Below, piece by piece: positions 4,980 through 51,796 of a DNA stretch of 64,000 bases. The notes beneath the pieces are model-generated. The model worked only from the letters and a program-made list of their open reading frames with translations. It did no database searches and was not told where the DNA came from. Position 1 is the first letter of the stretch, and every line of letters begins with the position of its first letter. Both the position numbers and the translations under genes were made by a program. Source of the DNA: Alphaproteobacteria bacterium TMED62 (GTDB lineage: Bacteria; Pseudomonadota; Alphaproteobacteria; TMED109); contig NHDP01000016.1 of assembly GCA_002170595.1 (NCBI GenBank), forward strand, positions 5,207 to 69,206. Direction: 5' to 3'.

Positions 4980-5078
4980 TTACTATTATTATTTAATATA
5001 CATCTAAAAAAATATTAGTAAATTGATATAGTATAAAAAAATTGTTTAATATTTTAATTTTAAAAGTATAATTTTTAA

Positions 5079-6263: not shown

Positions 6264-6280
6264 CATAGTTAAAAGTAAGT

Positions 6281-8708: not shown

Positions 8709-8710
8709 AT

Positions 8711-10510: not shown

Positions 10511-10595
10511 AAATTTAATACTTTCCTAAATTAAGCTTCAAATAATTAAATAGTATTTATTTTAATAATAGATAATATCACTTTTTTAAAAAGCT

Positions 10596-15890: not shown

Positions 15891-16025
15891 TTTTTTAAAT
15901 TAAGTTATTTTTTAAAAATTAATTTTTTTTAATTATTATAATAATCTAAGTTAATTGATTAATATATTCAATTATTACTCTTAATTATAATACAATTAAC
16001 AAATAGAAAAAAATTGTTATTTATT

Positions 16026-16896: not shown

Positions 16897-16983
16897 TGGT
16901 GCCCACTCCCGGACTCGAACCGGGACGTCTTTACAGACAAGGGATTTTAAGTCCCTTGCGTCTACCTATTCCGCCAAGTGGGC
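16897..16983 (-). tRNA. tRNA-Leu (anticodon UAA), class II with long variable arm, CCA encoded
   Basis: Reverse complement GCCCACTTGGCGGAATAGGTAGACGCAAGGGACTTAAAATCCCTTGTCTGTAAAGACGTCCCGGTTCGAGTCCGGGAGTGGGCACCA folds as a cloverleaf. Acceptor GCCCACT/AGTGGGC, anticodon loop CU-UAA-AA, variable hairpin GTCT-GTAA-AGAC, T-loop TTCGAGT. Confidence 0.95.
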
Positions 16984-25889: not shown

Positions 25890-27050
25890 ATGCCTATAAA
25901 AAATAGAATATCACAGTTTGAGAATGAAATAACCAAATGGCGTCATTATTTTCATGAAAACCCTGAAATTGCTTATGATGAAAAAAATACCGCTAAAAAA
26001 GTTGTTGAGCTTTTAGAAAGTTTTAAAGTAGATAAAATAGAAACCGGTTTTGGTCAAACTGGCGTGGTTGCTACTATTGAGAATGGTTCTGGTAAAAGTG
26101 TTGGTCTAAGAGCCGATATGGACGCATTACCCATTACAGAGGAAAACATTAATACAAAACATTGCTCAAAAATTAAAGGAAAAATGCATGCATGCGGACA
26201 CGACGGCCACACAGCCATGTTATTAGGTGCAGCAAAATATCTCTCTGAAACTAGAAACTTTAAAGGAAAAGTCGTTTTAATATTTCAACCAGCAGAGGAA
26301 GGTTATGCAGGAGCTAAAGCGATGATAAAAGATGGACTGTTAAGTAAGTATCCCATTGATGCAATATATGGAATGCATAATATGCCTGGTTTAGAAAAAG
26401 GAATTATTGCTGTTGAAGAAGGTCCAAGACTAGCAGCTGCAGATAATTTTGTAGTTAAAATTACAGGTAAAGGATCTCATGCTGCTATGCCATCAAATTC
26501 TATTGACCCTATATTATGTACTTCGTCTTTGATACAAAACTTGCAATCAATAGTATCAAGAAATGTTAACCCAAAAGAAACTCTTGTAATTACAGTAGCA
26601 ACTTTTAATTCAGGAAAGGCAAATAATGTTATTCCTGACGAAGCAACTATTTCTGGAACTATAAGATACTATAATAAACAAGTAGGCTCCCTTGCAAAAG
26701 AAAGATTTAACACAATAGTTACTAATACTTGTAAACTATTTGGTGCTAAGGCAGAAATTAATATCAAAACAGGTTACCCTCCTACTATCAATCATCAAGC
26801 AAATAGTAAGTTTGCATTTGAAGTAGCAAAAAAAGTAGTTGGTATGAAAGCTAGCCCGCAACAGAGTCCAATGATGGGATCTGAAGACTTCTCATATTTT
26901 TTAGAAAAAGTTCCAGGAGCATTTGCTTGGATAGGGAATGGCAATACTGCTCCATTACATAACCCAAAATATGATTTTAATGATAATGTTTTGACTATAG
27001 GTTCTAGCTATCTTTCTAGTTTAGCTGAAGAAACACTTAATGGTAGTTAA
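25890..27050 (+). CDS. M20D-family amidohydrolase (hippurate hydrolase / N-acyl-amino-acid amidohydrolase-like)
   Basis: MHACGHDGH metal site, FQPAEEG, GSEDFSYF. It starts 1 nt after the pduO stop. Confidence 0.8.
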   Translation: MPIKNRISQFENEITKWRHYFHENPEIAYDEKNTAKKVVELLESFKVDKIETGFGQTGVVATIENGSGKSVGLRADMDALPITEENINTKHCSKIKGKMHACGHDGHTAMLLGAAKYLSETRNFKGKVVLIFQPAEEGYAGAKAMIKDGLLSKYPIDAIYGMHNMPGLEKGIIAVEEGPRLAAADNFVVKITGKGSHAAMPSNSIDPILCTSSLIQNLQSIVSRNVNPKETLVITVATFNSGKANNVIPDEATISGTIRYYNKQVGSLAKERFNTIVTNTCKLFGAKAEINIKTGYPPTINHQANSKFAFEVAKKVVGMKASPQQSPMMGSEDFSYFLEKVPGAFAWIGNGNTAPLHNPKYDFNDNVLTIGSSYLSSLAEETLNGS

Positions 27051-27067
27051 TAAAATATTAGAATTTA

Positions 27068-28054
27068 ATGACAAAAAGATTAATCAAGAATGAAATTAGT
27101 AAAAAAGCAGTTGATTTTCTATTAGTTTATTGTGGAAACCTTAAGCCAAATGAAAAGCTTCTAATTATATTTGATGAAACTACACAAAAATTAATCCCTT
27201 TATTTGAAGAGTCTGCATCAAAAATAACAGAATTTATTAAAATAAATCAAATTAAACAACTAAGCCAACATGGTTTAGAACCACCTAAAATTGTATCAAG
27301 AAATATGATAAAATCTGATTTAATAGTAGCTTTAACTAGTAAATCTTTAGCTCATACAAAAGCAAGAAATAATGCCTGCGTTAAAGGCGCAAGATATTTA
27401 AGTCTTGCCGAGTACTCTTTAGATGTTTTAGAAAATGAGGCAATCTTTGGAGTTAAAAAAAATAAATTAAATTTGCTAACAAAGATGGAAACCATATTAA
27501 ATAAAGGAAAGATAGTACAAGTAAAAACTAGCCTAGGTACTAGTCTAGAATTAAATATTGATAAAAGGCTCGCTAATAACTGTCCTGGTTTTGTTGAGAA
27601 ACCTGGACAATTGGGATCACCTCCAGATATGGAAGTTAATATTAGTCCAATTGAAGATTACAGTTTTGGTAGTTTAATAGTAGATGGATCAATAACTCAT
27701 CCTGAATTAGGACTTCTTCAAAATCCTGTCTCTTTAAAAATTCTCAAAGGTAAAATATATAAAATATCTGGTCAGGAAGAAGCAAAAAAATTACGAAAAA
27801 TATTTGAAAAACTAAACAATCCTAAAACTTTAGTTTTAGCTGAACTAGGTATTGGTTTTAATGAAAAAGCAAAGCTGTGTGGAAATATGCTAATAGATGA
27901 AGGAGCAGCAAATTGTGTACATTTTGGATTTGGTTCAAACTCCACAGTAGGTGGAAAAAATGAAGTTTCTTTTCATTTAGATTTTATTGTCAAAAATGCT
28001 GATGTATTTTTAGACAGTAAACTTATAATTAAAAAAGGAAAACCTTTAATATGA
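27068..28054 (+). CDS. M29 / aminopeptidase-T-like (NicX-like) protein
   Basis: C-terminal LAELGIGFNEKAKLCGNMLIDEGAANCVHFGFG resembles the conserved M29 segment (GIG.N....L.DEK..G..H.A.G). The call is tentative. Confidence 0.45.
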   Translation: MTKRLIKNEISKKAVDFLLVYCGNLKPNEKLLIIFDETTQKLIPLFEESASKITEFIKINQIKQLSQHGLEPPKIVSRNMIKSDLIVALTSKSLAHTKARNNACVKGARYLSLAEYSLDVLENEAIFGVKKNKLNLLTKMETILNKGKIVQVKTSLGTSLELNIDKRLANNCPGFVEKPGQLGSPPDMEVNISPIEDYSFGSLIVDGSITHPELGLLQNPVSLKILKGKIYKISGQEEAKKLRKIFEKLNNPKTLVLAELGIGFNEKAKLCGNMLIDEGAANCVHFGFGSNSTVGGKNEVSFHLDFIVKNADVFLDSKLIIKKGKPLI

Positions 28055-30762
28055 AGATTAATATAGTCCCTTTTGGAAAAGGTTTTAATCAAATAGTAAA
28101 TACTTATAGGAATAAAGTCGCGTTTATTGATTTTGATACTAAAAAAAGTTTTAACTATAATGAAATTGATATTTTAATAAAAAGATGCCTTTGTTTTTTA
28201 CAGAAAAGTGGATTAAAAAAAAATGATACATTTCAAGTAGTTTTACCAAATTGTATAGAGCTTTTAATTTTATTTCTTGCTGCAGGTAAGGGTGGGTTTA
28301 ATATTATGCCTAGTTCCGAAGAATCCACCGATTCAGAACTTACTCTATCTAATAAAATAATTAACTGTAAATTAGTTATTACCGAAAAAAAAAATAAGCT
28401 AGATAAAGTTTTCAATAAAAAGAATAAATTAAAAAAAATTTCATTAAAGTGTAATTTTTCTTGGCTCCCAAATCAGCACAGCAGCTTAAATAATAAAAAT
28501 GGTAAGTTATATATTATGACTAGCGGTACTACTGGAAAACCTAAGGCTATAGTCATTAGTCTTGATAAATTATGGTCAAGTGCAATTGCTTTTGGAGAAA
28601 ATTATAAAGAACTTAACTCAAATTCTTGCATATGGAATTACTTGCCTATGTCTTATTTAGGAGGCCTTTATAACCTATGTTATATTCCTTTAACTAAAGG
28701 AAGTAAAATTATTGTATCTAAATCTTTTGATAGCTTAATGGCGTTAAATTTTTGGAAAACAGTTGAGCAGTTTAAGATAAATATACTATGGTTGGTACCA
28801 AGCTTATTAAAATTACTTCAAAAGCTTTCAGAACGGACAAATGAATTAGAAAATAAAAGAATAGGGTCTTTAATTAAATTTAGTTTTTTGGGAACGGCAC
28901 CTATATCTTTAAAAGAAAAAAAACTTTTTGAAAAAACTTTTCAATTTCCAGTTTATGAAAATTATGGATTATCTGAAACCACATTTATCTCTGCTGAGAA
29001 AAATTATGATTATAAAAATAGAACCGAAAGAACAGTAGGAAAATTATTGCCGTATGTTGAAACCAATTTTAAAAAAAATTCTCAGATTAAAAATGAATTA
29101 AAAGTAAAATCTCCTTTTTTATTTTTAGGGTATTTGAACGACAGAGGAGAGATATCTCTACCTTTAGATAAAGAGGGTTATTTTTCAACCGGGGATATTT
29201 GTAATATTAAAAATAGTATAATTAAATTAAATGGAAGAATTAGAGATATCATTAAAAAAGGTGGATTCTTTATTCAACTTCGTGAAATAGAAGAGAAATG
29301 TAAAATAGTTGATGGGGTAGAAGAAATTTCTGCTGTTCCCATAAAAGACAATTTTTATGGAGAAGATTATGTTATATTTTTTAGTAGCAATTCGCCAGAA
29401 AGCACTAAATATAAATTAAATAATCTCTTAAAAGTTAACTTTAATAAAAGAAAACATCCTAAAGAAGTTTTTCCTATAGCCTCTTTTCCAAAAACTAAAA
29501 GCGGTAAGATAAAAAAAACCGACCTTGTTAAATTTGTTCCCTTCTATATAAAAAATAGTGTTAAAAATAGAAAGTTTAATTTTAATATTTCAAAAAAAGT
29601 GTCTAAGATCAATCCTGCCTCTTCTATAGAAATAAACCAAATTGTATACAATATGAAAAGAGCTGGTGAAACTGTAACGGCTCTCTCTTTAGGAGAGGCA
29701 TTCTTTAAAATTCCGCAGTATGATTTTTCGAGATTAGATTTTAATAAAGGTTATCATTACAGCGATACTGCTGGCATTCCAGAACTGAGAAAGAAGATTG
29801 CAAATCATTATCAAAAAAACTATCAAGCCCCAGTATTTGATAATGAAATTATAATATCAGCAGGTTCTAAACCATTAGTTTTCATGGCAATGACTACAGT
29901 CCTTGACAAAGGTGCTGAAATATTAATCCCTGAGCCTGCTTGGCTTAGTTATGAAGAACATGCTAAGCTTTGTGGAGCAAAAATTAAATTTATCCCATAC
30001 AATATTGAAGTTAAAAATTATAAAAATTTTTTTACTAAAAACACCAAATTGTTAATAATTAATAATCCTAATAACCCTCGAGGAAAAGTATATACTGAAG
30101 AGGAACTCAGACAAATCTATGAAATAGCAATAAACAAAAATATTTTTATTCTTATAGACGAAGCTTATTCTGACTTTGTCAATGAAAAGTTCATATCAAT
30201 GGCTAATATTGCACCAGATAAAAAAGGAATTATCATTGTTAATTCTTTATCAAAAAATTTAGGTATATCTGGTTGGCGAATAGGATTTATAATTGCTTCT
30301 CCTGAAATTAATAAACAAATACTTAAATTAAATCAACATATCATAACCTGTGCTCCTACTATATTGAGTATGTATGTAGATAAGTATTATGAAAAGATAT
30401 ATAAAAATACTAGCAAACAAATCATAAATTTATTACAAAAAAGAATAATTATTCAGAAATATTTAAAAAAAATAAATTTAAATTTTTTGGAAGGTAATTC
30501 TACTTTTTATTTTTTTATATCTATAGAAAACTTTATAGGAACTGATTTAGAATTTTCTAACTATTTGCTTTATAACCATAGAGTTTCTGTAGTCCCAGGA
30601 TCTGCGTATGGGATAAGTACAAATAGATATATTAGAGTTTCTTTTGGAACAGAAAGTGTGAATTCTATAAAAAGTGCTTTAGATAAAATCAAAACTGTTA
30701 TAAGAATAAATAAAATTGATCATGTAGATTTAGAAAAAAAAATTAAAGTTTGGGCTTTTTAA
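28051..30762 (+). CDS. Fusion protein: adenylate-forming (acyl/aminoacyl-AMP ligase) domain + fold-type-I (AspC-like) PLP aminotransferase domain
   Basis: Residues ~1-500: TSGTTGKPKAIV, ENYGLSETT, YFSTGDI, GRIRDIIKKGG, PKTKSGKIKK. From residue ~512 (nt ~29584): ALSLGEAFFKIP, NNPNNPRGK, SLSKNLGISGWRIGF (PLP Lys). It is one uninterrupted 903-codon frame. Confidence 0.8.
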   Translation: MKINIVPFGKGFNQIVNTYRNKVAFIDFDTKKSFNYNEIDILIKRCLCFLQKSGLKKNDTFQVVLPNCIELLILFLAAGKGGFNIMPSSEESTDSELTLSNKIINCKLVITEKKNKLDKVFNKKNKLKKISLKCNFSWLPNQHSSLNNKNGKLYIMTSGTTGKPKAIVISLDKLWSSAIAFGENYKELNSNSCIWNYLPMSYLGGLYNLCYIPLTKGSKIIVSKSFDSLMALNFWKTVEQFKINILWLVPSLLKLLQKLSERTNELENKRIGSLIKFSFLGTAPISLKEKKLFEKTFQFPVYENYGLSETTFISAEKNYDYKNRTERTVGKLLPYVETNFKKNSQIKNELKVKSPFLFLGYLNDRGEISLPLDKEGYFSTGDICNIKNSIIKLNGRIRDIIKKGGFFIQLREIEEKCKIVDGVEEISAVPIKDNFYGEDYVIFFSSNSPESTKYKLNNLLKVNFNKRKHPKEVFPIASFPKTKSGKIKKTDLVKFVPFYIKNSVKNRKFNFNISKKVSKINPASSIEINQIVYNMKRAGETVTALSLGEAFFKIPQYDFSRLDFNKGYHYSDTAGIPELRKKIANHYQKNYQAPVFDNEIIISAGSKPLVFMAMTTVLDKGAEILIPEPAWLSYEEHAKLCGAKIKFIPYNIEVKNYKNFFTKNTKLLIINNPNNPRGKVYTEEELRQIYEIAINKNIFILIDEAYSDFVNEKFISMANIAPDKKGIIIVNSLSKNLGISGWRIGFIIASPEINKQILKLNQHIITCAPTILSMYVDKYYEKIYKNTSKQIINLLQKRIIIQKYLKKINLNFLEGNSTFYFFISIENFIGTDLEFSNYLLYNHRVSVVPGSAYGISTNRYIRVSFGTESVNSIKSALDKIKTVIRINKIDHVDLEKKIKVWAF

Positions 30763-30763
30763 T

Positions 30764-31015
30764 TTGACTAAAAAAAATATAAATATTGAACAAAATTTAA
30801 AGGAAGTTTTTAAAAAAATTTTTAATATAACTAGTGAAAATTGCCAAAGTTTTTCAGAAAAAGAAGAATATAAATGGGATAGCTTAAAAGGCGTAAACTT
30901 ACTATTAGAAGTAGAAAAAATATTTTCCGTAAAAATCTCGACTAATGACCTACAAAATTTTAATTCTTTTAAAAATATAAAAAAAATTTTAAATAAACAA
31001 ATAAATGAAAAATAA
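30764..31015 (+). CDS. Stand-alone acyl/peptidyl carrier protein
   Basis: 83 aa with a phosphopantetheine-site-like KWDSLKGVNLLLEVEK. TTG start 1 nt after the fusion gene stop. Confidence 0.6.
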   Translation: MTKKNINIEQNLKEVFKKIFNITSENCQSFSEKEEYKWDSLKGVNLLLEVEKIFSVKISTNDLQNFNSFKNIKKILNKQINEK

Positions 31016-31577
31016 AAACAAATTTTTAATTGAAGGTAAATTAGTCAAATTTAGAAACCCTTCTAAAGATGATGCTAAAGGAATTTGGAGTGAGTGGTTT
31101 AATAATTTAGATAATTTAGTTATGTTAGGAAGAGTACCATTGCCAAATACTCCTGAACAACAAATTGCTTATATGATTGAAAGCCAAGATAATGCTGATA
31201 GAGTTATATTTATTGTTTGTCTAAAATCTAGTAGCAAAGCGATAGGGGTAGTCAGTTTAAGTAATATTAATAGATATCATCAAAGTGCTCAAACGGGTCT
31301 TTTAATTGGCGAAAAAAAGCATAGAAATTACAAAATAGCTTTGGAAACAATGTCTTTGCTAACCGAATTTGCCTTAGTAAAAATGAATCTAAACAGATGT
31401 GATGCTAGTGCTTTAAAAATTAATCCACAGAGTTATTTACTAAATGAGTTTTTAGGCTGGAGAAAAGTAGGAGAAAAAAAACAAAGTCATTATCACAATG
31501 GGATTTTTGTAGATACAATTTTATATGAAATTTTAAGAAAGAACTGGCTAAAATCTAATAAAAGACCAAACTTGTAG
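31005..31577 (+). CDS. GNAT-family (RimJ/RimL-like) N-acyltransferase
   Basis: 190 aa, with IGVVSLSNIN...GLLIGEKKHRNYKIALE (acetyl-CoA-binding-like region). It overlaps the carrier gene by 11 nt. Confidence 0.6.
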   Translation: MKNKNKFLIEGKLVKFRNPSKDDAKGIWSEWFNNLDNLVMLGRVPLPNTPEQQIAYMIESQDNADRVIFIVCLKSSSKAIGVVSLSNINRYHQSAQTGLLIGEKKHRNYKIALETMSLLTEFALVKMNLNRCDASALKINPQSYLLNEFLGWRKVGEKKQSHYHNGIFVDTILYEILRKNWLKSNKRPNL

Positions 31578-31942
31578 ACTTAATAAAAGACAATATTTTA
31601 ATTTAAGTGCAAAATATTAAAAAACCTTAACCAATTTCATATTACAATTATTTTAGATACCTTATAACGGGTGCTAATATAGCAAGGAATAGAAGCTTAT
31701 AATCTACTCAGTAATTCAGAAAGGGAATCGTATGCTAAGTATAAATATTATTACTCAGATAATGAAATATTAATTATATTTTGATGCCACTCCTTATAAC
31801 AATCATAGAAAAAATAGAGCTACTTTAAAAAGTATAAAATAAATAATTTATAAGTGATATTAAATTTTTTAATAAGCTTATTATAAAATTTTATATTATA
31901 TTTAGTAATTATCTTATATAAATATGTAATTAAGTAACTCAA

Positions 31943-32723: not shown

Positions 32724-33467
32724 TTACTTTTTCAAAAATAATTCAGCTAATTTAAGTTGATGCTTGTAATCAATATCAATTGCTCTTTCACTTGGCATCT
32801 CGTATGTTTTCACAGATTTATCATAAAATGTTTTATGTTTTAATATCCATTCATACTTTGCGGCAAATACTGCACCGTTAGGAGCATAAATAGAAGAGTT
32901 TTTTATTCCTAAAGGCTTGAAATAATTTTTCGCATTACTTAGTCCTATTTTTTTAAGATTATACTGAAGTTTACTTTGACTCATTACCGCACTTGCACCT
33001 TTTTCAATAATCTTTATTCCTTTTATAATATCATTATCTTTTCTTAGTGGAGAAGTTGGTTGTAGTATTAAAATATTATTTTCATGCTTTAGTTTATTAG
33101 TTACATGTTTCGTTACATCTATCAAGGACGCATAATTTGTTGATAAATATTTAGGCCTTTTTAGAATAATTAAGTCTTTATATTTAGAACATTTTTTTAA
33201 TATTAAATCGCTGTCACTAGATACAACTGTATTACCATATTTTTTTAATCTAAGTGCTTGCTCTAATGTCCAGAAAATTAATGGTTTCCCCATAAAATTT
33301 TTAAGGTTTTTTCCTGGTAATCTCTTTGAACCCCCTCTAGCAGGAACTATAAATAAAAAAATATTTTTCATTTCATTAATTTTAATAAATATTATTATTG
33401 ATAATATTACAATAAGCAAAATATGTATTGCTTTAATTGCAATTATTTTATGCTTGCTATACTTCAT
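32724..33467 (-). CDS. Acylneuraminate cytidylyltransferase family (CMP-nonulosonate synthetase; NeuA/PseF/LegF-like)
   Basis: IVPARGGSKRLPGKNL signature. The annotated ORF has a 32-aa hydrophobic N-terminal extension. An alternative start is Met33 at 33371. Confidence 0.75.
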   Translation of the reverse strand: MKYSKHKIIAIKAIHILLIVILSIIIFIKINEMKNIFLFIVPARGGSKRLPGKNLKNFMGKPLIFWTLEQALRLKKYGNTVVSSDSDLILKKCSKYKDLIILKRPKYLSTNYASLIDVTKHVTNKLKHENNILILQPTSPLRKDNDIIKGIKIIEKGASAVMSQSKLQYNLKKIGLSNAKNYFKPLGIKNSSIYAPNGAVFAAKYEWILKHKTFYDKSVKTYEMPSERAIDIDYKHQLKLAELFLKK

Positions 33468-33541: not shown

Positions 33542-34300
33542 ATGATTTCAAATCCTGTAAGGGTTATTGCTAGACTTGATATAAAAAGTAATAGTGTAGT
33601 GAAAGGTATAAACTTAGAAGGGTTAAGAAAGGTCGGAGACCCAAAAGAGTTGGCAAAAAAATATTATAAAGAAGGTATAGATGAAATTATTTACATGGAT
33701 GTTGTAGCTTCTTTATATGAAAGAAATACTATAGAGAAGTTTATAAAAGTAGCAGCAAAAGAAATTTTTGTTCCTTTGACTGTAGGAGGGGGAATTAGAA
33801 ATTTGGAAGATATTAGAAAAGTTTTGAACAATGGCGCAGACAAAGTTGCTATAAATACAGCAGCAATAAAAAATGAAAATTTCATTAAAGAAGCTTCACA
33901 AGAAATCGGAAGCCAATCTATAATAGTATCTATAGAGGCAAAAAAGGTAGAGAAAAACAATTGGGAGGCTTATTATGATAATGGTAGAGAAAGGTCTGGA
34001 TTAAATGTATTAGATTGGGCAAAAAAAGCACAAGATTTAGGAGCTGGTGAAGTCTTGATAACATCAGTTGATAACGAAGGCTTAAAAAAAGGAATGGATT
34101 TAGAATTACTCAAAAGGTTAAGAGACATTGTTTCTATTCCAATTATTTTTAGTGGAGGAGTGGGACAAGTTGAACACATAATAGATGTAGTACCAAATAC
34201 AGATGCTGTAGCTTTGGCTAGCGTTTTACACTACAATGAGTACAGTATAAAATTTTTGAAAGATATTTTATATAAAAAAGGTATAAATGTTAGAAGTTAA
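33542..34300 (+). CDS. HisF-like imidazole-glycerol-phosphate-synthase cyclase paralogue (WbuZ/HisF2 type, glycan amidotransferase partner)
   Basis: RVIARLDIK, LTVGGGIR, GAGEVLITSVDNEG, FSGGVG. It is followed by HisH-like and WbuX-like genes rather than his genes. Confidence 0.8.
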   Translation: MISNPVRVIARLDIKSNSVVKGINLEGLRKVGDPKELAKKYYKEGIDEIIYMDVVASLYERNTIEKFIKVAAKEIFVPLTVGGGIRNLEDIRKVLNNGADKVAINTAAIKNENFIKEASQEIGSQSIIVSIEAKKVEKNNWEAYYDNGRERSGLNVLDWAKKAQDLGAGEVLITSVDNEGLKKGMDLELLKRLRDIVSIPIIFSGGVGQVEHIIDVVPNTDAVALASVLHYNEYSIKFLKDILYKKGINVRS

Positions 34301-34308
34301 ACAATAGA

Positions 34309-34938
34309 ATGATTACTGTAGTTGATTATGGTTATGGAAATATCTTTTCTATAGTATCCGCATTTAATGAAATAGGTTTTAAGTGCAAAGTCTCAGATAA
34401 AGAAAATGATATTTTGAATGCTACAATTATTGTTTTGCCTGGAGTAGGAGCTTTTAAGCAAGCAATGAGATCATTAGAAATTAAAAAGTTAGATAAAATA
34501 ATTATAAAAGCTGTAGCAAATAAAAAAAATATAATAGGAATTTGTCTAGGCTATCAAATGTTATTTGATAAAAGTAATGAATTCGGAGTTTATAATGGTT
34601 TAGGCTTAGTTGAAGGAGAGGTAAGAAGTTTAAAAACTTTTGATGGCCGTTACTCAAAAATTCCTAATGTGGGCTGGCGTCCTTTGATATTAAATAAGGA
34701 AAATAAAATAATGAGTGATAAAAATGATAATCAAATGTTTTATTTCGTTCATTCATTTGTACCGTTTGCAAAATATGAAAAAAAAATAAGTTCTTTTATA
34801 AAGTTTAATGATAATAAAATTCATGCCTCTATACATTACAATAATATTGTAGGTTTCCAATTTCATCCAGAAAAAAGTGGAAAAGCCGGACTAAAATTAC
34901 TCAAAGAGTCAACAGAATATTTATTAAATAGAGATTAA
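34309..34938 (+). CDS. HisH-like class-I glutamine amidotransferase (WbuY/HisH2 type)
   Basis: LPGVGAF, nucleophile elbow GICLGYQML, FQFHPEKS. Confidence 0.8.
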   Translation: MITVVDYGYGNIFSIVSAFNEIGFKCKVSDKENDILNATIIVLPGVGAFKQAMRSLEIKKLDKIIIKAVANKKNIIGICLGYQMLFDKSNEFGVYNGLGLVEGEVRSLKTFDGRYSKIPNVGWRPLILNKENKIMSDKNDNQMFYFVHSFVPFAKYEKKISSFIKFNDNKIHASIHYNNIVGFQFHPEKSGKAGLKLLKESTEYLLNRD

Positions 34939-35018
34939 TGAAAAAAATGTTTGGAATATTAAGATCATTCTATTTATAATAATTTATAAGATTTAAATTT
35001 TAAATATTATATACTTTT

Positions 35019-36227
35019 ATGATTCCAGATAAGTCAAGCAAAGCTCAACCTGAAGATGTAGTGTTTTGCAAAAAATGTGTAATGTCTAATCAAAGACCTG
35101 GTTCCACAATTGAATTTAAAAATACTTCAAAAAAAGAAAGAAGATTGATTGGTTTCAACAATAAAGGCGTTTGTAATGCATGCGAATATAAGTCTATTAA
35201 AGATAATGACATAGACTGGGAAGAAAGAGAGGCATTGCTAAAAACACTTTGTGATAAATACAGAAGTAGAAATAATTCATATGATATAATAATTCCAGGT
35301 AGTGGGGGAAAAGATAGTGTATTTACAAGTCATATTTTAAAGTACAAATATAATATGAATCCTCTTACTATAACGTGGGCTCCTCATTTGTACACTAATA
35401 TAGGTTGGCAAAATTTTCAACAATGGATTAACTCTGGTTTTGATAATATTTTATTAACTCCAAATGGTAAACTTCATAGGTTACTGACAAGAAAAGCATT
35501 TTTAAATTTATGTCACCCATTTCAGCCTTTCATAATTGGCCAGAAAATATGTGGTCCTAAATATGCTGCTCTTCATAAAATACCTTTTGTGATGTATGGT
35601 GAGCACGCAGCTGAGTATGGAGATAGAATGGATGAAGCATTTGATCCAAAAATGAAAGAACATTATTTTATGGATGAGACTAATGCTGATAATCTAATTT
35701 TATCAGGAGAGCCAGCAAAAAAAATCTGCTTAGATAATGGTTTCAATCTATCAGAAATGTCTCCATATCTTCCTATTAAGCCCAAAACTATTAAAGATGC
35801 TAATGTTCAGGTCTTTCACTTAAGTTATTATATCAAATGGGACCCTCAAGAAGTTTTTTATTACGCGGCAGAAAATGCTGGATTTCAAGCTAATTCAGAA
35901 AGGACACAAGGTAGCTACAGTAAATATAGTTCAATTGATGATAAGCTTGACACTCTTCACTATTATACCACTCTAATTAAATTTGGAATAGGCAGAGCAA
36001 CTTACGATGCCTCACAAGAAATCAGATCAAATAAAATTGATAGAGAGGAAGGGGTAGCACTGGTAAAAAAATATGACCAAGAGTTTCCTGATAAGTTTTT
36101 TGATGAGATACTTGAGTACATGAATATTACTGCCGATCAGTTTTGGGAAGTAATAAATAAAAATAGACCTGAACATTTATGGGAAAAAAGTAATAATCAG
36201 TGGAAACTTAAGCATCAAGTTAGTTAA
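35019..36227 (+). CDS. N-acetyl-sugar amidotransferase (WbuX/PseA/WbpG family, PP-loop ATPase)
   Basis: N-terminal Cys cluster CKKCVMSNQRP...GVCNAC and PP-loop IIPGSGGKDS. Confidence 0.75.
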   Translation: MIPDKSSKAQPEDVVFCKKCVMSNQRPGSTIEFKNTSKKERRLIGFNNKGVCNACEYKSIKDNDIDWEEREALLKTLCDKYRSRNNSYDIIIPGSGGKDSVFTSHILKYKYNMNPLTITWAPHLYTNIGWQNFQQWINSGFDNILLTPNGKLHRLLTRKAFLNLCHPFQPFIIGQKICGPKYAALHKIPFVMYGEHAAEYGDRMDEAFDPKMKEHYFMDETNADNLILSGEPAKKICLDNGFNLSEMSPYLPIKPKTIKDANVQVFHLSYYIKWDPQEVFYYAAENAGFQANSERTQGSYSKYSSIDDKLDTLHYYTTLIKFGIGRATYDASQEIRSNKIDREEGVALVKKYDQEFPDKFFDEILEYMNITADQFWEVINKNRPEHLWEKSNNQWKLKHQVS

Positions 36228-36352: not shown

Positions 36353-36428
36353 TGGTGCCGGATGAGAGATTTGAACTCCCGACCCACTGATTACAAATCA
36401 GTTGCTCTACCAACTGAGCTAATCCGGC
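36353..36428 (-). tRNA. tRNA-Thr (anticodon UGU), CCA encoded
   Basis: Reverse complement GCCGGATTAGCTCAGTTGGTAGAGCAACTGATTTGTAATCAGTGGGTCGGGAGTTCAAATCTCTCATCCGGCACCA. Acceptor GCCGGAT/ATCCGGC, anticodon loop UU-UGU-AA, T-loop TTCAAAT. Confidence 0.95.
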
Positions 36429-36817: not shown

Positions 36818-38653
36818 TCACATGGGATTCTGATGCCAAAGTTTAGGTACATTATTAATTGTTTCTATGACTGTTTTAAAATCAAGGTTCAAAACTTCTA
36901 AATATTGAGCGATATTTTGGTATCTAGGTCTATTTTCTTCTTCAACTAATTTGAGGCCTTCTTGTCTTGACATTACTCCCTCCCTTATTTGATTACTTCT
37001 AAAAGTATCATGTTCGGTAAAACCAGCTATTGTATAATAAATATAATTATAGAAGCCAGCAGTACCATCGCCTATTCGCCAAGTAGTATTAGTGTCATCA
37101 GCTAACTCCCAATCATATTCCTTTATTAAGGTTTTGTTTATTAACCTTTCATTCCAACTCCAATAGTCATAAATATAATGATAATCTTGTTTTTTCTTAA
37201 AACTCCTATAATACTCCCCTGATAATGTATCCCAAATAGACATATTAAAATAAGAAGGATTGGCAACGAATGCTTTCGCTCTTAAATATTGATACTTGAT
37301 TTGTTTTATAACGCCATGTGAATATATTCTGTCCATATCAAAATCTGGCGGGTATCCTAAAAAGCCTGATTTAAAATGAGTAACTTCGAAAGGACTATAA
37401 CCCCATAAATTCAGCTTTATAGTGGTCTGTTTCTTTACTTCTTCTATATATTTATAGAAATGCTTATCTCCTGCTGTAAATAAATTTACCATTCCAAGAT
37501 GAGGGTTCTTGAGCCATGCTAATATATTTTTTCTAATGTTCTTTCTTTTAAATTGTATATCAGCAGAAACTATAATATTTTCAACTTTTAGTTTTGAACA
37601 AACTCTGCTTATATTTCTTCTACCTATATCTGACGTCATACCCCAATCATATGTAAAAGTAATAGGTTTCATATTCAATTCTTTAACTATTATGTGTAAT
37701 GCGTAGGAACTATCCCTTCCCCCAGAAAAAGGAACTATACAATCTTCTTTATTTTTCTTCCTGTAGTATTCTAGGATCTTAAAAAGTTCTTCTTTAGGTT
37801 TAAGCTTAGATTTTTTTTTGTGGTTCAAGCAGTAATTACATACGCCTTCTTCATTAAATTTAATGAAGGGGAATGTATGGGGTAATAAACATTTAGTGCA
37901 CCTTACCAATGTAGGAAAATCTTGAGCTAATAAATTTCTGTCAGTATCTAAAAAATTATTTTTAGGTACTAAGTTTATTCTATTTACTTTGAACTCTTTA
38001 ATAGTAATTGGTAATCTATCAGATTGAGGAATATTCAAAATTTTTAATTTATTATTTAATTTTTTTATTTTTTTACAATTTAAGGAGTGTAGGTGAAATT
38101 TTTCTGACGAAAAAATTATTAAATTTTTTTTCTCTCCATAATAAAGACTGCCGTGATTAGAACTTAAAATCAGCTTTCCTAATTTAGGGAGAGCTAAAGC
38201 TATTGAAAATGTGCCAAAACATTTATTGAAAAGTATATTTTTAATTTTATCTACATCAATATCCTTATTGCATATATATTTCTTAGTTAGTGCATGAAAT
38301 ATTTCAGTATCAAGATTACTTTTTCTTTTTATATTTTCATTTTTGAATATATTGCTATCATTTACTATTATTCCATTATGGAAAACACAAACTTCTCCTT
38401 CTGAATAAGGTTGATTTTCCATGTTGTCATTAGTTATTAATCTTCCTATTCCTAGAAAAACTTTTGAGTTTTTAAAATTTATTTTCTTAATAAGCTTAGT
38501 AATAGAAAAATCGGCCTTATTGATATTATAATGTTCATTATAATATAAAATACCACTTGAATCTTTTCCTCTTTTTTCTGCAAACTTTGATAATCTTTTA
38601 ATTATTTCCTCAGTGCCTTCTCCTTCACCTATAACACCAAAAATACCACACAT
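36818..38653 (-). CDS. Fusion: class-II (Ntn) glutamine amidotransferase domain + WbuX-type N-acetyl-sugar amidotransferase (PP-loop) domain
   Basis: Starts MCGIFGV (Cys2 nucleophile). The middle has CTKCLLPHTFP...GVCNYC and the PP-loop VPFSGGRDSS. The C-terminal half is collinear by eye with the 35019-36227 product. Confidence 0.75.
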   Translation of the reverse strand: MCGIFGVIGEGEGTEEIIKRLSKFAEKRGKDSSGILYYNEHYNINKADFSITKLIKKINFKNSKVFLGIGRLITNDNMENQPYSEGEVCVFHNGIIVNDSNIFKNENIKRKSNLDTEIFHALTKKYICNKDIDVDKIKNILFNKCFGTFSIALALPKLGKLILSSNHGSLYYGEKKNLIIFSSEKFHLHSLNCKKIKKLNNKLKILNIPQSDRLPITIKEFKVNRINLVPKNNFLDTDRNLLAQDFPTLVRCTKCLLPHTFPFIKFNEEGVCNYCLNHKKKSKLKPKEELFKILEYYRKKNKEDCIVPFSGGRDSSYALHIIVKELNMKPITFTYDWGMTSDIGRRNISRVCSKLKVENIIVSADIQFKRKNIRKNILAWLKNPHLGMVNLFTAGDKHFYKYIEEVKKQTTIKLNLWGYSPFEVTHFKSGFLGYPPDFDMDRIYSHGVIKQIKYQYLRAKAFVANPSYFNMSIWDTLSGEYYRSFKKKQDYHYIYDYWSWNERLINKTLIKEYDWELADDTNTTWRIGDGTAGFYNYIYYTIAGFTEHDTFRSNQIREGVMSRQEGLKLVEEENRPRYQNIAQYLEVLNLDFKTVIETINNVPKLWHQNPM

Positions 38654-46583: not shown

Positions 46584-46589
46584 AATTGT

Positions 46590-47240: not shown

Positions 47241-47285
47241 ACCGTGATTTATATATATAAATTAATTAATAATAAATTTAATAAA

Positions 47286-48383: not shown

Positions 48384-48393
48384 ACTATTTATT

Positions 48394-48481
48394 ATAATAA
48401 TTTATTATTAACATTAAAATCAAAAATAAAAAAACATTATTATTGAATAATGTTTATTTTAACTTAATAATAAATTATTAT
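48394..48481. repeat. 18-bp perfect inverted repeat (ATAATAATTTATTATTAA / TTAATAATAAATTATTAT) in the divergent DegT-DegT intergenic region, enclosing a 10-4-10 palindrome
   Basis: Arms read at 48394-48411 and 48464-48481. The inner palindrome is AAACATTATT-ATTG-AATAATGTTT at 48432-48455. Confidence 0.8.
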
Positions 48482-48494
48482 TAATGGAAATATT

Positions 48495-51776: not shown

Positions 51777-51796
51777 TTTAAAAAGGGAATGTTAAG

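Follow-up and report, generated by a model that had tools for sequence, protein, structure and literature searches.

Several described systems share parts of their chemistry with that proposed for the gene cassette reported here. The AHBA pathway of butirosin uses a carrier (BtrI), a ligase (BtrJ), a PLP decarboxylase (BtrK), BtrO/V, an acyltransferase (BtrH) and a deprotecting enzyme (BtrG). It resembles the cassette in that an amino-acid-derived acyl group is held on a free-standing carrier, a PLP enzyme takes part, an amide to the amine of an amino sugar is formed, and a peptidase-like enzyme acts on the aminoacyl amide bond. It differs in that its ligase is of the ATP-grasp and not the ANL type, its PLP enzyme is a decarboxylase and not an AspAT-type transaminase, its acyltransferase and deprotecting enzyme belong to other families, and its acceptor is an aminoglycoside instead of a nonulosonic acid; the sequence relationship between the two is limited to the carrier. 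In Vibrio cholerae O1, the carrier RfbK and the AMP-ligase RfbL likewise combine an ANL ligase with a free carrier to give a non-acetyl N-acyl group in a surface-glycan locus, but this perosamine N-tetronate system has neither an aminotransferase nor a NicX/M29-like protein, and places a hydroxy acid on perosamine.

Systems of the bacilysin BacF/BacD type, and the proteins P0250/P0251 described below, resemble the cassette in that the product of a class-I aminotransferase, an amino acid, has its carboxyl group activated for amide formation. Such pairings of an aminotransferase with an L-amino-acid ligase differ in activating through an acyl phosphate, and in having no carrier, separate acyltransferase or NicX-like partner. 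The AL-ACP-KS-AMT loading modules of iturin/mycosubtilin-type synthetases likewise bring acyl activation, a carrier and an aminotransferase to bear on a single substrate; these are megasynthase parts with KS and C domains, whereas the cassette has a free-standing carrier and an AspAT-like aminotransferase, a class different from that of the AMT domain.

A further parallel comes from Campylobacter jejuni NCTC 11168, where genes outside the core of the pseudaminic-acid locus swap the 5-N-acetyl group for another acyl group. The Cj1295-Cj1300 region presumably holds neighbouring carrier and methyltransferase genes, and we equate the aminopeptidase-like family of Cj1295 with the DUF4910/DUF2172 genes found in the commonest form of the cassette, with which the region has the families DUF4910/DUF2172, Antibiotic_NAT, carrier and methyltransferase in common. 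The trio of NicX/M29-like protein, adenylase (A) and aminotransferase (AT) is, we presume, missing there, with a carrier gene nearby and no NicX-like gene beside Cj1295-Cj1296/7. Genetic evidence in the region concerns Cj1295 only, which is needed to replace the 5-N-acetyl group of pseudaminic acid with a di-O-methylglyceroyl group (the 2,3-di-O-methylglyceroyl form) and adjoins the N-acetyltransferase gene Cj1296/7 (PMC3068675).

The locus

The window, a stretch of 64,000 nucleotides from contig NHDP01000016.1 of Alphaproteobacteria bacterium TMED62, carries a real, conserved gene cassette at 27068-31577. Five ORFs follow each other on the forward strand: an M20D amidohydrolase (25890-27050, 386 aa), a NicX/M29-superfamily metalloprotein (27068-28054, 328 aa), an adenylase-aminotransferase (A-AT) fusion (28051-30762, 903 aa), an acyl-carrier-like protein (30764-31015, 83 aa, with a TTG start) and a GNAT of the Acetyltransf_3 family (31005-31577, 190 aa). 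By their ORF coordinates, the M20 gene is followed after a 17-nt gap by the NicX/M29-like gene, which runs into the fusion through a 4-nt ATGA overlap; the carrier gene begins 1 nt after the fusion and overlaps the GNAT gene by 11 nt. These ORFs and junctions had been described in the first-pass annotation and match the ORF list exactly, and the motifs quoted there (TSGTTGKPK, YGLSETT, STGD, GRIRDIIKKGG, KSGKIKK, NNPNNPRGK, SLSKNLGISGWRIGF and WDSL) are all found in the translations. The same annotation had stated that condensation (C), ketosynthase (KS) and thioesterase (TE) domains were absent, and a Pfam and NCBIfam scan found none in any of the five proteins; the domain calls of the fusion, the GNAT and the M20 protein score far beyond chance. 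The literature yielded neither a published characterisation of the cassette nor an orthologous operon with an assigned pathway, which agrees with its having been singled out as a candidate undescribed system.

The adenylase-aminotransferase fusion

The fusion consists of an ANL (acyl-CoA-synthetase-like) adenylate-forming domain (28051-29550, forward strand; residues ~1-500) and a fold-type-I, class-I (AspAT-like) aminotransferase domain (29578-30762, forward strand; residues ~510-903), joined by a disordered linker (residues 502-515); the AF2 model has a pLDDT of 83, with low confidence in the linker. Pfam matched AMP-binding at residues 15-362 (152 bits, GA 29.9), AMP-binding_C at residues 412-486 and Aminotran_1_2 at residues 562-872 (198 bits, GA 19.7). 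The best NCBIfam match of the A domain was MenE, with 169 bits over a full-length alignment and below the cutoff of 330, and its best PDB matches were 4-coumarate and oxalate CoA ligases. It reads LPMSYLGG where NRPS enzymes have the FDxS motif, and we take it to lack the aspartate by which NRPS-type domains bind the alpha-amino group; an A domain of this acyl-CoA-synthetase type would be better suited to keto, hydroxy or dicarboxylic acids than to a simple amino acid.

The AT domain aligned with the Thermotoga AspAT 1o4s (E 7e-49), the Asn, Asp/Tyr, PLP Lys, phosphate Arg and alpha-carboxylate Arg all being matched. The PLP lysine, on which the earlier aminotransferase call depended, is K735, and the alpha-carboxylate arginine is R862. 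In an alignment of 12 fusions with 36-57% identity, T161, K165, E309, T310, D382, R396 and K486 (the A10 lysine) of the A domain were invariant, as were N674/N675, D703, Y706, K735, R743 and R862 of the AT domain. The fusion recurs as a single protein in independent isolates, SAGs and MAGs, including the cultured Kiloniella litopenaei, down to 36% identity; the 903-aa frame is thus genuine, and not an artefact of assembly or frameshift. It is not the hallmark of the system that it had first seemed, since most relatives have separate A and AT genes, which makes the fusion a derived, rare architecture that does not define the system. Judged from these sequences, it is a rare, lineage-specific merger of two usually adjacent genes that probably arose at least twice. 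The AT relatives P0250/P0251, 47-50% identical to the window AT domain, are instead joined to an ATP-grasp L-amino-acid-ligase domain in a single polypeptide, and their genes belong to amino-sugar loci that include DegT, glycosyltransferase and sugar-transfer ATP-grasp genes.

The NicX/M29-like metalloprotein

The protein encoded upstream of the fusion has no Pfam or NCBIfam match of its own, and the Pfam M29 threshold was not reached. Its nearest solved relative is NicX (7cn3, E 8.5e-16 by phmmer against the PDB), and a profile search returned NicX at 1e-13 and PepS (4icq) at 3e-3 with the ligand motifs aligned. A Foldseek search with the AF2 model (pLDDT 95) gave NicX at TM 0.82 and PepS/AmpT/AmpS at TM 0.6-0.7, M29 peptidases being reached only by profile and by fold. 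All five M29-type metal ligands (E189, E259, H285, H303 and D305) are kept and are invariant in 27 homologs. The protein shares with NicX its fold, detectable sequence homology and the HxD motif, but has a Glu at the ligand of the NicX 'SHIG' motif and two additional M29 ligands that NicX lacks; with the M29 aminopeptidases PepS (4icq), AmpT (2ayi) and AmpS (1zjc) it shares the fold, detectable homology and the HxD motif, but is ~80 residues shorter. Originally labelled an M29-like hydrolase, the protein is by both sequence and fold closest to NicX, while keeping the five M29 ligands.

The gene had been regarded as a mere upstream hydrolase, a role that does not fit its linkage: by genome comparison it is the obligate, most tightly linked partner of A and AT, and in some genomes (L020; P0242) all three are fused in one protein of 1,224 aa. 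Its context here is biosynthetic, coupled or fused to A and AT, and we know of no such coupling or fusion in either the NicX or the M29 family. NicX-like paralogs of ~43% identity sit in catabolic, non-glycan contexts.

The carrier, the GNAT and the M20 hydrolase

The Pfam scores of the carrier fall just below the GA thresholds (PP-binding_2 29.9 vs 32; PP-binding 17.5 vs 20.8), but its WDSL is the phosphopantetheine-serine motif, in which D-S is invariant among 7 cassette ACPs. With an HMM of these 7 sequences, a carrier was found within 6 kb of the NicX-like gene in 32 of the 42 related loci, its position being conserved, which bears out the original identification. The GNAT matched Acetyltransf_3 with 48.5 bits (GA 25.4) and the PseH model with 31.6 bits (cutoff 93); among solved structures it is nearest to RimJ-like and spermidine acetyltransferases. 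Orthologs follow the ACP gene in L001, L008, L009, L050 and L051, and the CoA pyrophosphate loop of the cassette GNAT clade is degenerate, reading HRNYKIA and not conforming to the G-x-G type. This protein is presumed to be an N-acyltransferase. The proposed partnership of carrier and GNAT is conserved and translationally coupled across related loci, but the GNAT is one of several interchangeable acyltransferases: the slot may be filled by a GNAT (as in the window), an Antibiotic_NAT (the commonest terminal enzyme), a PglD-like protein or a 349-aa protein of no named family.

The M20 protein is well supported as such (Peptidase_M20 165 bits; TIGR01891 359 bits, cutoff 154). Its inclusion in the system is contradicted by its distribution, the gene being found only in the window and its closest relatives (L008 and L051), always directly after PduO, and in none of the other GNAT-type cassettes compared. 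It is peripheral, either a candidate de-N-acylase or a backbone gene coupled to PduO.

Distribution across genomes

The NicX-like protein served to retrieve 42 genome loci, at which neighbours within 6 kb were counted. An A gene was present in 33 of the 42 and an AT gene in 29, and a methyltransferase lay beside the carrier in 13. PPTase genes adjoin the cassette in L002, L003, L015 and L026, and L036 has a PPTase-like, a GNAT and an AT domain in one ORF. By this comparison of sequences, the conserved module is NicX/M29-like protein, A, AT and ACP with an interchangeable N-acyltransferase; split-gene versions occur in many bacterial and some archaeal lineages. The commonest form carries DUF4910/DUF2172, Antibiotic_NAT, carrier and methyltransferase genes, whereas the window cassette has no DUF4910, Antibiotic_NAT or methyltransferase gene and has a GNAT instead.

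Genes for NeuB, PseB/LegB-like proteins, DegT and CMP-transferases are the module's neighbours in, among others, Kiloniella, Cohnella, Prochlorococcus, Pelagibacter HIMB1485, Legionella and Lachnospiraceae. Translational packing of the module with NeuB, Epimerase_2 or PglD-like genes is frequent. A sugar marker of the NeuB/PseB/DegT/CMP-transferase type lies within 10 kb in 23 of the 33 cassette-positive loci; since the other 10 have none within that distance, and the six-gene cassette of L010 stands alone amid unrelated genes, a nonulosonic acceptor is likely, not universal or proven.

A proposed pathway and its alternatives

We lean, with some reserve, towards the reading that the four genes at 27068-31577 are a self-contained module for the ACP-dependent synthesis of a non-acetyl, amino-acid-derived N-acyl group, which would be linked through an amide bond to an amino group of a pseudaminic-type sugar or its nucleotide-linked precursor. 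The AspAT-like domain would begin by transaminating a free 2-oxo acid to an L-alpha-amino acid, probably a non-standard one, as suggested by the retained alpha-carboxylate arginine and by the fusion of related AT domains to L-amino-acid ligases in amino-sugar loci. The ANL domain, in keeping with its family, would then adenylate the carboxylate and load it as a thioester onto the phosphopantetheine arm of the 83-aa carrier, from which the coupled GNAT would move the acyl group to a sugar amine, possibly freed by a de-N-acetylase (candidates are the PIG-L protein at 4287-4979 and the M20 protein). GNATs normally use acyl-CoA; an acyl-carrier donor is suggested by the 11-nt overlap with the carrier gene and by the degenerate pyrophosphate loop, the latter being weak evidence for a non-CoA donor. 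The NicX/M29-like protein would be a hydrolase-type, metal-dependent enzyme of this pathway, with a possible part in precursor preparation, deprotection or editing of the loaded carrier. Against this reading count the A domain type, which would fit non-amino acids better, the sub-threshold Pfam scores of the carrier, the ~9 kb between cassette and Pse island in the window, the loci lacking a sugar marker and the catabolic settings of NicX-like paralogs.

Loading could also precede transamination, the ANL domain activating a dicarboxylic 2-oxo acid (2-oxoglutarate being the obvious candidate) at its distal carboxylate and tethering it to the carrier; the AT would aminate the tethered alpha-keto end, and the resulting gamma-glutamyl-type thioester would pass to the same sugar amine, the transferred group being N-methylated in cassettes with a methyltransferase. 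This order is rather unlikely. The acyl-CoA-synthetase-like A domain suits it, with the full-length MenE match and the oxalate-CoA ligases among the PDB matches, and the substrate of MenE is itself a 4-oxobutanoate derivative, activated at its aliphatic carboxylate; an A and an AT domain on one chain are typical of enzymes that handle carrier-bound intermediates, the retained arginine is compatible in that a tethered substrate would need attachment through another carboxylate, and the 13 methyltransferases beside carriers would find a use. There is precedent in butirosin, where a PLP enzyme processes glutamate that BtrI carries by the gamma-carboxylate, and in the N-methyl-glutamyl legionaminic acid on Clostridium botulinum flagellin. 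However, the score against MenE falls well short of the cutoff, 2-oxoglutarate has no direct support, the AT-ligase fusions argue for free substrates, and the window cassette has no methyltransferase. The last two points also count against an AT running in the deaminating direction, the fusions because they imply an amino-acid product. A common amino acid such as serine would then give a 2-oxo acid that is activated, possibly after reduction, for a 2-oxo- or 2-hydroxy-acyl decoration (glyceroyl-, lactoyl- or dihydroxybutanoyl-type), which would parallel the di-O-methylglyceroyl pseudaminic acid of C. jejuni and the tetronate carried by the V. cholerae O1 antigen. The A domain type fits non-amino acids, the DUF4910 and Antibiotic_NAT of the common form would match Cj1295 and Cj1296/7 (PMC3068675), its carrier and methyltransferase would match the presumed neighbouring genes, and Kiloniella has an aldo-keto reductase (AKR) gene adjoining its NicX-like gene, as the window has one at 16026-16889; but the AKR is associated with the CMP-transferase/class-III aminotransferase pair, the conserved core holds no reductase, and this direction appears very unlikely.

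A swap of roles, which we consider quite unlikely, would have the NicX/M29-like protein form the amide by binding the alpha-amine of the aminoacyl-carrier and catalysing aminolysis by the sugar amine, with the GNAT, Antibiotic_NAT or hexapeptide transferase only capping the new alpha-amine from acetyl-CoA. It would account for an invariant NicX-like protein beside a freely exchanged acyltransferase, the families named for it all being classical users of acetyl-CoA; the five M29 ligands are in place, and an aminopeptidase active site recognises an N-terminal aminoacyl amide. N-acetyl-aminoacyl groups such as N-acetylalanyl, the type of decoration that would result, are common substituents on these sugars. 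Leg5Ac7AcAla is an example (PMC7371886). Against the swap stand the catabolic loci of NicX-like paralogs, the overlap of the GNAT and carrier genes with the degenerate CoA-binding loop, and the adjacency of the Antibiotic_NAT-type Cj1296/7 to Cj1295 in C. jejuni (PMC3068675), whose di-O-methylglyceroyl product has no amine to cap and which is not known to have a NicX-like gene there; nor do we know of an M29 or NicX family member acting as a transacylase. It seems highly improbable that the product is no glycan at all but a small N-acyl metabolite (an acylated amino acid or polyamine, siderophore-like or signalling), the sugar genes being near through shared variable genomic islands. The isolated L010 cassette, the 10 loci without a sugar marker, the housekeeping genes on the left of the window cassette and the RimJ-like and spermidine acetyltransferase relatives of the GNAT would agree with this; yet the module is embedded among nonulosonic-acid genes in many phyla, often translationally packed, its commonest terminal enzyme belongs to an aminoglycoside N-acetyltransferase family, and the AT-ligase fusions likewise lie in amino-sugar loci.

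The probable acceptor sugar

A pseudaminic-acid-type nonulosonic acid island was recognised with Pfam and NCBIfam on both strands at 4287-16889. On the forward strand it holds PseC (5079-6263; near-threshold in NCBIfam, 420.6 vs cutoff 423.5) and an adjoining small GNAT (6281-6730). The reverse strand encodes the PIG-L de-N-acetylase (4287-4979), a PseG-like protein (6727-7701, 78.7 bits in NCBIfam), a bona fide PseB (7701-8708, 491 bits in NCBIfam, cutoff 408), an ABC exporter (8711-10510), a NeuB/PseI-type synthase (10596-11642, NeuB 290 and PseI 205 bits in NCBIfam), a class-III aminotransferase (11629-12915), an IPMS-like synthase (12912-14072), a CMP-transferase (14062-14859), an ATP-grasp protein (14835-15890) and the AKR (16026-16889). 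Beyond the cassette lie a PseF-like CMP-nonulosonate cytidylyltransferase (32724-33467, reverse strand; CTP_transf_3 82.7 bits, PseF 100.6 bits against a cutoff of 205.7) and an acetamidino-forming tailoring set at 33542-36227 on the forward strand, with WbuZ/HisF-like (266 bits), HisH-like (198 bits) and WbuX N-acetyl-sugar amidotransferase (349.8 bits, cutoff 203.2) proteins by NCBIfam and His_biosynth and GATase by Pfam.

Housekeeping genes border the window cassette on its left, ~9 kb of them separating it from the island; the Kiloniella cassette (L001) is surrounded by the same gene set as this island. The earlier suggestion of an amino-sugar acceptor from the flanking glycan islands finds support in comparative genomics, which places the module inside NeuB/PseB/DegT/CMP-transferase clusters. 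As the island has its own small GNAT beside PseC, the cassette GNAT would be an extra enzyme, and the Pse-type island at 4-17 kb is the probable source of the sugar that it would acylate.

Gene layout and DNA context

The region singled out in the first-pass annotation consists of five tightly packed, co-oriented open reading frames, and an ORF list bore out its coordinates and spacings. On the + strand, an M20D amidohydrolase gene (25890-27050; 386 aa, Peptidase_M20 and TIGR01891) is followed by the gene of a NicX/M29-like metalloprotein, here called NicX-like (27068-28054; 328 aa, neither Pfam nor NCBIfam match), and then by the fusion of an ANL adenylate-forming (A) domain with an AspAT-like aminotransferase (AT) domain (28051-30762; 903 aa, AMP-binding, AMP-binding_C and Aminotran_1_2), by a predicted carrier-protein gene with a TTG start (30764-31015; 83 aa, PP-binding match under threshold) and by a GNAT gene (31005-31577; 190 aa, Acetyltransf_3 at 48.5 bits against a Pfam gathering threshold, GA, of 25.4). 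The junctions are, in order, a 17-nt gap, a 4-nt overlap, a 1-nt gap and an 11-nt overlap, and the sequence motifs quoted initially were all found in the translations of the five ORFs. The last four genes (27068-31577) are referred to below as the cassette.

No terminator was predicted on the + strand between the five genes, except for a weak one within the fusion, and the promoter scan, with 49 promoter-like sites against 48 expected, was uninformative at the GC content of the window (~27%). Two tRNAs were the only Rfam matches across the window. A non-coding gap of 365 nt (31578-31942), unusually long for a compact genome, separates the GNAT from an RlmB-like methyltransferase gene, with neither an Rfam match at gathering thresholds nor a predicted terminator. 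In the species collection, the single-cell genome Rhodospirillaceae bacterium AG-919-A04 came closest; the plasmid collection returned only paralogs of at most 33% identity, and nothing matched in the phage collection.

The adenylation-aminotransferase fusion

The A-AT fusion is genuine, yet it is the rarer form compared with separate A and AT genes. A word-indexed search returned about 15 fused full-length homologs (36-86% identity), one of them a 923-aa protein of the cultured Kiloniella litopenaei, and among 1.84 billion cluster representatives, searched exhaustively, no more than about 8-10 fused clusters turned up, together with dozens of separate ligases of ~500 aa and aminotransferases of ~400 aa at 35-50% identity. 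An assembly or frameshift artefact was ruled out by fused orthologs (86, 57, 49, 44 and 36-38% identity) in independently assembled isolates, SAGs and MAGs, and the claim of a fusion shared with related genomes has stood down to 36% identity, with the catalytic residues invariant. Split pieces were seen in one relative (locus L051), on a contig with a coverage of 1.3x and many frameshifts, which also affect its M20 and NicX-like genes. The linker between A and AT is in frame, and an AlphaFold model of the fusion (mean pLDDT 83) has two confident domains joined by a disordered 14-residue connector, the low-confidence stretch 502-515. In a neighbour-joining tree of AT domains (no bootstrap), the fused proteins fall into two separate clades, whose gene order also differs, with split forms nested beside and within them, so that two or more independent mergers are probable.

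The public NCBI gene call for the identical fusion (database protein P0001) has 807 aa and is 96 residues shorter at the N-terminus than the ORF at 28051-30762. Since the alignment of orthologs begins at residue 1 and the start codon of the longer frame overlaps the preceding stop (ATGA), this annotation probably truncates the adenylation domain. An exact-sequence look-up of P0001 found nothing on record.

The A domain matches AMP-binding at 152 bits (GA 29.9) over residues 15-362 and belongs to the ANL superfamily; the P-loop residues T161/K165, E309/T310, D382, R396 and the A10 lysine K486 are invariant in 12 aligned fusions. Its best NCBIfam match is MenE (TIGR01923), at 169.3 bits under the equivalog cutoff of 330.15, its best structure matches in the PDB are 4-coumarate and oxalate CoA ligases, and it is of the acyl-CoA-synthetase type. 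During amino-acid adenylation by NRPS enzymes, the aspartate of the A4 motif FDxS binds the alpha-amino group. This aspartate is absent from the A domain, where the matching segment reads LPMSYLGG. The initial statement that condensation, ketosynthase and thioesterase domains are missing held in Pfam and NCBIfam searches of all five proteins, and an NRPS/PKS fragment was ruled out, as these domains were not found in any cassette protein.

The AT domain matches Aminotran_1_2 at 197.9 bits (GA 19.7) over residues 562-872, which places it among the class I/II aminotransferases, and aligns over its full length with Thermotoga AspAT (1o4s, E 7e-49), with all catalytic positions matched. The PLP lysine, on which the assignment of the C-terminal domain had been made to depend, is present in this alignment as K735. 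Together with N674/N675, D703, Y706, R743 and the alpha-carboxylate arginine R862, it is invariant in the 12 fusions. The best match among AspAT equivalogs is asp_aminotase_Arch, at 253 bits under a cutoff of 550.

The NicX-like protein

The 328-aa protein, initially described as an M29-like hydrolase, is a core member of the cassette and is homologous to NicX (7cn3, E 8.5e-16). With a profile built from six cassette orthologs, the M29 aminopeptidase PepS is found as well (E 3e-3). Its AlphaFold model (pLDDT 95) matches NicX with a TM score of 0.82, followed by PepS, AmpT and AmpS at 0.6-0.7 and then by the crocagin proteins CgnB and CgnE. Even at E 1, Pfam gives no match for the window protein, Peptidase_M29 included; some of its homologs carry a precomputed PF02073 match, and a precomputed Pfam NicX assignment (PF26233) exists on the identical protein P0121 and its homologs. 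Members are named in databases as ‘aminopeptidase’, ‘aminopeptidase T’, ‘2,5-dihydroxypyridine 5,6-dioxygenase’ or ‘hypothetical’, and the entry 100% identical to the window's protein in the TMED62 MAG is a ‘hypothetical protein’.

NicX has a mononuclear Fe(II) site of two histidines and one aspartate. A profile alignment showed that the five M29 metal-ligand positions are kept in the NicX-like protein, i.e., E189 in PPDxEV, E259 in AELG, H285 in HFGFG, and H303 and D305 in HLD, and these residues are invariant in 27 diverse homologs. At the same five positions, NicX has non-ligand residues at three and a histidine in place of E259, the His of its ‘ISHIGWG’ aligning to the Glu of ‘LAELGIGF’. 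The cassette context is biosynthetic and contains none of the nic genes of nicotinate degradation; a true NicX dioxygenase was ruled out by the ligand pattern and this gene context. Thus, compared with NicX, the protein fails the iron-ligand and context features, whereas compared with M29 it misses the Pfam threshold and keeps the ligands. Because the M29 ligand set is kept and invariant while NicX differs at those positions, the NicX-like protein would be a metal-dependent, hydrolase-type enzyme and not a ring-cleaving dioxygenase. The options for its role are precursor formation, deprotection, editing or amide formation.

Carrier, GNAT and M20 hydrolase

AMP-binding, Aminotran_1_2 and Acetyltransf_3, the families named for the cassette in the first-pass annotation, all scored above GA. 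The naming of PP-binding was borne out in part: the D-S phosphopantetheine motif is present, and invariant in seven cassette carriers, but the Pfam scores lie under GA (PP-binding_2, 29.9 against 32; PP-binding, 17.5 against 20.8), and the protein is therefore treated as a predicted carrier. ACPS (PPTase) genes adjoin the cassette in five loci (L002, L003, L015, L026 and L036); none was found within the window.

The CoA pyrophosphate loop of the window GNAT reads H-R-N-Y-K-I-A and not the canonical Q/R-x-x-G-x-G/A. It is similarly degenerate in the orthologs of L001 (Kiloniella), L008, L009 and L050, and the other GNAT of Kiloniella has W-G-Q-G-I-G. An identity of the cassette GNAT with PseH was ruled out by its 31.6 bits against the TIGR03585 cutoff of 93.1 and by a second small GNAT (6281-6730) that follows PseC.

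The M20 gene exceeds the TIGR01891 cutoff (358.6 bits against 153.75) and stays below the cutoffs of the equivalogs CpsA and DoeB2. The first-pass annotation placed it immediately before the system, and in the comparison of genomes it was not linked to the cassette across relatives. It accompanies the cassette in only one of 42 genome loci, besides L051 and the window, and in the window's nearest relatives, the only places where the two occur together, it always follows PduO in the conserved order XDH-NrdB-NrdA-PduO-M20. This distribution, with GNAT-type cassettes elsewhere lacking M20, rules it out as a core component.

Distribution and variants of the cassette

The 42 genome loci were retrieved via the NicX-like protein by a scan with two peptide patterns, so that the frequencies given here are indicative, and were mapped with phmmer and HMM probes, neighbours being counted within 6 kb. 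They span Alphaproteobacteria, Pelagibacter HIMB1485, Prochlorococcus SAGs, Legionella, relatives of Desulfovibrio and Bacteriovorax, Planctomycetota, Lentisphaerae, Melainabacteria, Lachnospiraceae, Clostridia, Cohnella and CPR phyla, and two are archaeal (Nitrosopelagicus and a Methanobacteriota MAG). An A domain lies within 6 kb of the NicX-like gene in 33 of the 42 loci; for the AT domain and the carrier, the counts are 29 and 32. The arrangement seen most often is NicX-like, A, AT, carrier, Antibiotic_NAT and DUF4910, and a two-domain methyltransferase is found in 13 loci. The clade of the window (with L008, L009, L050, L051 and the Kiloniella locus L001) has NicX-like, fused A-AT, carrier and GNAT. 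Variant cassettes contain a PglD-like hexapeptide transferase and an Epimerase_2 gene, and a Firmicutes variant has a 349-aa protein of unknown type and a polysaccharide deacetylase.

Further fusions tie the parts of the cassette together. A, AT and NicX-like are joined in a single protein in L020 (7259-10966) and in P0242 (1,224 aa), whose C-terminal 320 residues (903-1222) are 44% identical to the 328-aa protein of the window. In a Peribacteria (CPR) locus (L036, 3750-6026), a 759-aa ORF matches the PPTase probe, GNAT and AT in one frame, followed downstream by the carrier, the NicX-like gene and the adenylase. The protein P0272 was considered as an AT-NicX-like fusion and rejected, as no similarity was found.

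In nine of the 42 loci, a NicX-like gene is present but the stretch retrieved shows no A domain. In the two of these that were annotated, the NicX-like proteins are paralogs in unrelated, catabolic-looking contexts with no ligase: that of L028 (9977-10912; Lentisphaeria, 43% identical to the window's) lies among GH28, M24 peptidase and polysaccharide-deacetylase genes, and that of L047 (3285-4265; Clostridia, 32% identical) adjoins a class-V aminotransferase and two aconitase-family genes. They hint at a broader family role in amino-acid, 2-oxo-acid or glycan-amide metabolism.

Two other enzyme families were seen near the module. Genes of PhyH-family Fe/2-oxoglutarate oxygenases are found immediately upstream of the L002 fusion (9228-10004) and at the edge of the window's sugar island (477-1289, - strand); in other pathways, members of this family act on carrier-bound amino acids by hydroxylation or halogenation. 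HMGL-family enzymes recur as a DmpG-type aldolase fused to a related adenylase (P0384, 830 aa), as a gene between AT and NicX-like in Maridesulfovibrio (L027, 8152-9981) and as an isopropylmalate/homocitrate-synthase-like gene in the window's sugar island (12912-14072); they may make an unusual 2-oxo-acid precursor.

Association with nonulosonic acid loci

The Kiloniella cassette is flanked on one side by an ABC exporter and AKR and on the other by PseB-like, DegT, NeuB, ATP-grasp and CMP-transferase/class-III aminotransferase genes, and the split cassette of Cohnella follows a legionaminic-type set (NeuB, PglD, PtmE-like, CMP-transferase). A similar embedding was found in L002, L003, L005, L016, L018, L029-L031, L035, L037, L040 and L043. 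With conservative single-sequence probes, an amino-sugar or nonulosonic marker lies within 10 kb in 23 of the 33 cassette-positive loci, and NeuB in 16. In the complete chromosome of L010, the six-gene cassette stands alone among unrelated genes; the module is therefore self-contained, and its association with nonulosonic loci is not universal. We infer a nonulosonic-type acceptor for the cassette.

The window contains the same gene set as Kiloniella but split in blocks. The first is a pseudaminic-type island at 4-17 kb, ending at a tRNA, with PseB, PseC, a small GNAT, PseG-like, a NeuB/PseI-type synthase, a PIG-L de-N-acetylase, an ABC exporter, a class-III aminotransferase, an IPMS-like synthase, a CMP-transferase, ATP-grasp and AKR. 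It is followed by 8 kb of housekeeping genes, the cassette, a PseF-like cytidylyltransferase, the acetamidino set WbuZ/HisH/WbuX and a second tRNA. PseB scores 491 bits, above its equivalog cutoff of 407.75, and PseC lies just under its own (420.6 against 423.5 bits), followed by PseG (78.7 against 153.55), PseI (205 against 340) and PseF (100.6 against 205.7), all below cutoff. The tRNA genes mark the right end of the island (16900-16983, - strand) and the end of the cassette-plus-acetamidino block (36356-36428, - strand), positions consistent with an island-type organisation.

Beside the WbuX/WbuZ/HisH set, a 611-aa protein (36818-38653, - strand) with an N-terminal class-II glutamine amidotransferase and a WbuX-like domain (151 bits, below cutoff) is a second, self-sufficient amidotransferase. 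A further glycan-precursor block (44531-58443) contains thiamine-dependent E1 alpha/beta-like genes, a methyltransferase, two DegT aminotransferases, SIS (GmhA-like), HAD and transaldolase-like genes, two epimerase/dehydratase genes, a heptose-type bifunctional kinase and cytidylyltransferase-like gene, a GFO/IDH oxidoreductase and a gene of the UDP-glucose-dehydrogenase family. AKR, CMP-transferase and class-III aminotransferase, the last two often fused, recur beside the cassette in L001, L005, L029, L030, L040 and L050, and in the window at 11629-16889. This trio has been described, without a function, in Aeromonas flagellin islands (PMC7874193) and may add an extra amino group to the sugar.

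Proposed function

The cassette combines an intact catalytic domain pair, a carrier-like D-S protein and an acyltransferase, with strong linkage that includes the NicX-like gene, and a preference for nonulosonic-acid loci. ANL domains form an acyl-adenylate and then hand the acyl group to a thiol, and the obvious thiol acceptor for the A domain is the adjacent predicted carrier, PPTase genes lying beside several cassettes. The AT family interconverts an alpha-amino acid and a 2-oxo acid, with R862 holding the alpha-carboxylate. In the cassette, AT would make a free, probably non-standard amino acid, which the A domain would then load. This order is suggested by AT domains, 47-50% identical to the window's, that are fused to ATP-grasp L-amino-acid ligases, again in amino-sugar loci. 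These class-I aminotransferase-LAL_C2 ligase fusions (P0250 and P0251; L052, L053 and a JGI contig) have as neighbours DegT, GT4/GT56 glycosyltransferases, Amidohydro_2, and a methyltransferase or a ‘sugar-transfer-associated’ ATP-grasp, and look like a second way, without a carrier, of making aminoacyl-sugars of this kind.

The resemblance of the A domain to a ligase for non-amino acids keeps two other schemes alive. A dicarboxylic 2-oxo acid such as 2-oxoglutarate might be activated and undergo transamination while tethered, by a butirosin-like logic, or AT might work in the deaminating direction, leading to an oxo- or hydroxy-acyl group. The GNAT might take the acyl group off the carrier and attach it to a sugar amine, as hinted by the 11-nt overlap with the carrier gene and the degenerate CoA loop common to the cassette GNATs. 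PIG-L or M20 could free the acceptor amine, an idea that parallels the hypothesis made for Cj1295 of C. jejuni, an aminopeptidase-like protein required to replace the 5-N-acetyl of Pse with di-O-methylglyceroyl (PMC3068675).

A bolder reading, which we regard as improbable, is that NicX/M29-fold protein, ANL domain, AspAT-like AT and carrier form an unrecognised pathway across many prokaryotic lineages for the non-proteinogenic (or gamma-linked) aminoacyl decoration of nonulosonic acids, the aminopeptidase-fold metalloenzyme having been recruited to biosynthesis, e.g., for amide-forming transacylation from the aminoacyl-carrier or for the formation of an unusual 2-oxo-acid precursor. We know of no member of the aminopeptidase-fold superfamily with a biosynthetic role of such a kind. 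If true, the pathway would give abundant marine microbes (TMED62-type Alphaproteobacteria, Prochlorococcus, Pelagibacter and Nitrosopelagicus), and also Legionella, a surface sugar of a new, sialic-acid-like class.

Known systems and significance

The superfamilies represented are ANL, class-I aminotransferase, GNAT and M20D, and none of the proteins reaches a named equivalog (MenE, AspAT, PseH, CpsA or DoeB2). The nearest functional precedents are carrier-dependent N-acylations of amino sugars: AHBA in butirosin, tetronate in V. cholerae O1 and the genetically defined Cj1295 region of C. jejuni. To our knowledge, the trio of NicX/M29-like, ANL and AspAT-like proteins occurs in none of these three systems. 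No description of the module was found in the full-text literature, where coverage of subscription journals is thin and absence is not proof, the nearest being unspecific references to ACP and AMP-ligase genes of Aeromonas flagellin islands and the Cj1295 work; the suggestion that the system is undescribed stands within the same coverage, in which no orthologous operon with an assigned pathway was found. We class the cassette as a probable carrier-protein-dependent tailoring system of surface amino sugars, with an unusual and unexplained combination of enzymes and a very wide distribution.

Nonulosonic acids (pseudaminic, legionaminic) decorate flagella, capsules, LPS and S-layers and govern phage adsorption, immune recognition and motility, and the hypervariable glycan islands of abundant ocean microbes are thought to drive phage-host dynamics. 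The catalogued N-acyl variants include alanyl, N-acetylalanyl, N-methylglutamyl, hydroxybutanoyl, glyceroyl and others, and we know of almost no enzymes that install them. For one such tailoring route, the cassette offers a concrete candidate that is both widespread and genetically compact, and it is present in the cultured, tractable Kiloniella litopenaei and Cohnella cellulosilytica as well as in some of the most abundant ocean microbes. Solving it would link a gene set to a glycan structure, assign a function to a large family mis-annotated as ‘aminopeptidase / dihydroxypyridine dioxygenase / hypothetical’, reveal how an ANL enzyme works together with a transaminase and a carrier where no megasynthase is involved, and supply glyco-engineering parts for sialic-acid mimics.
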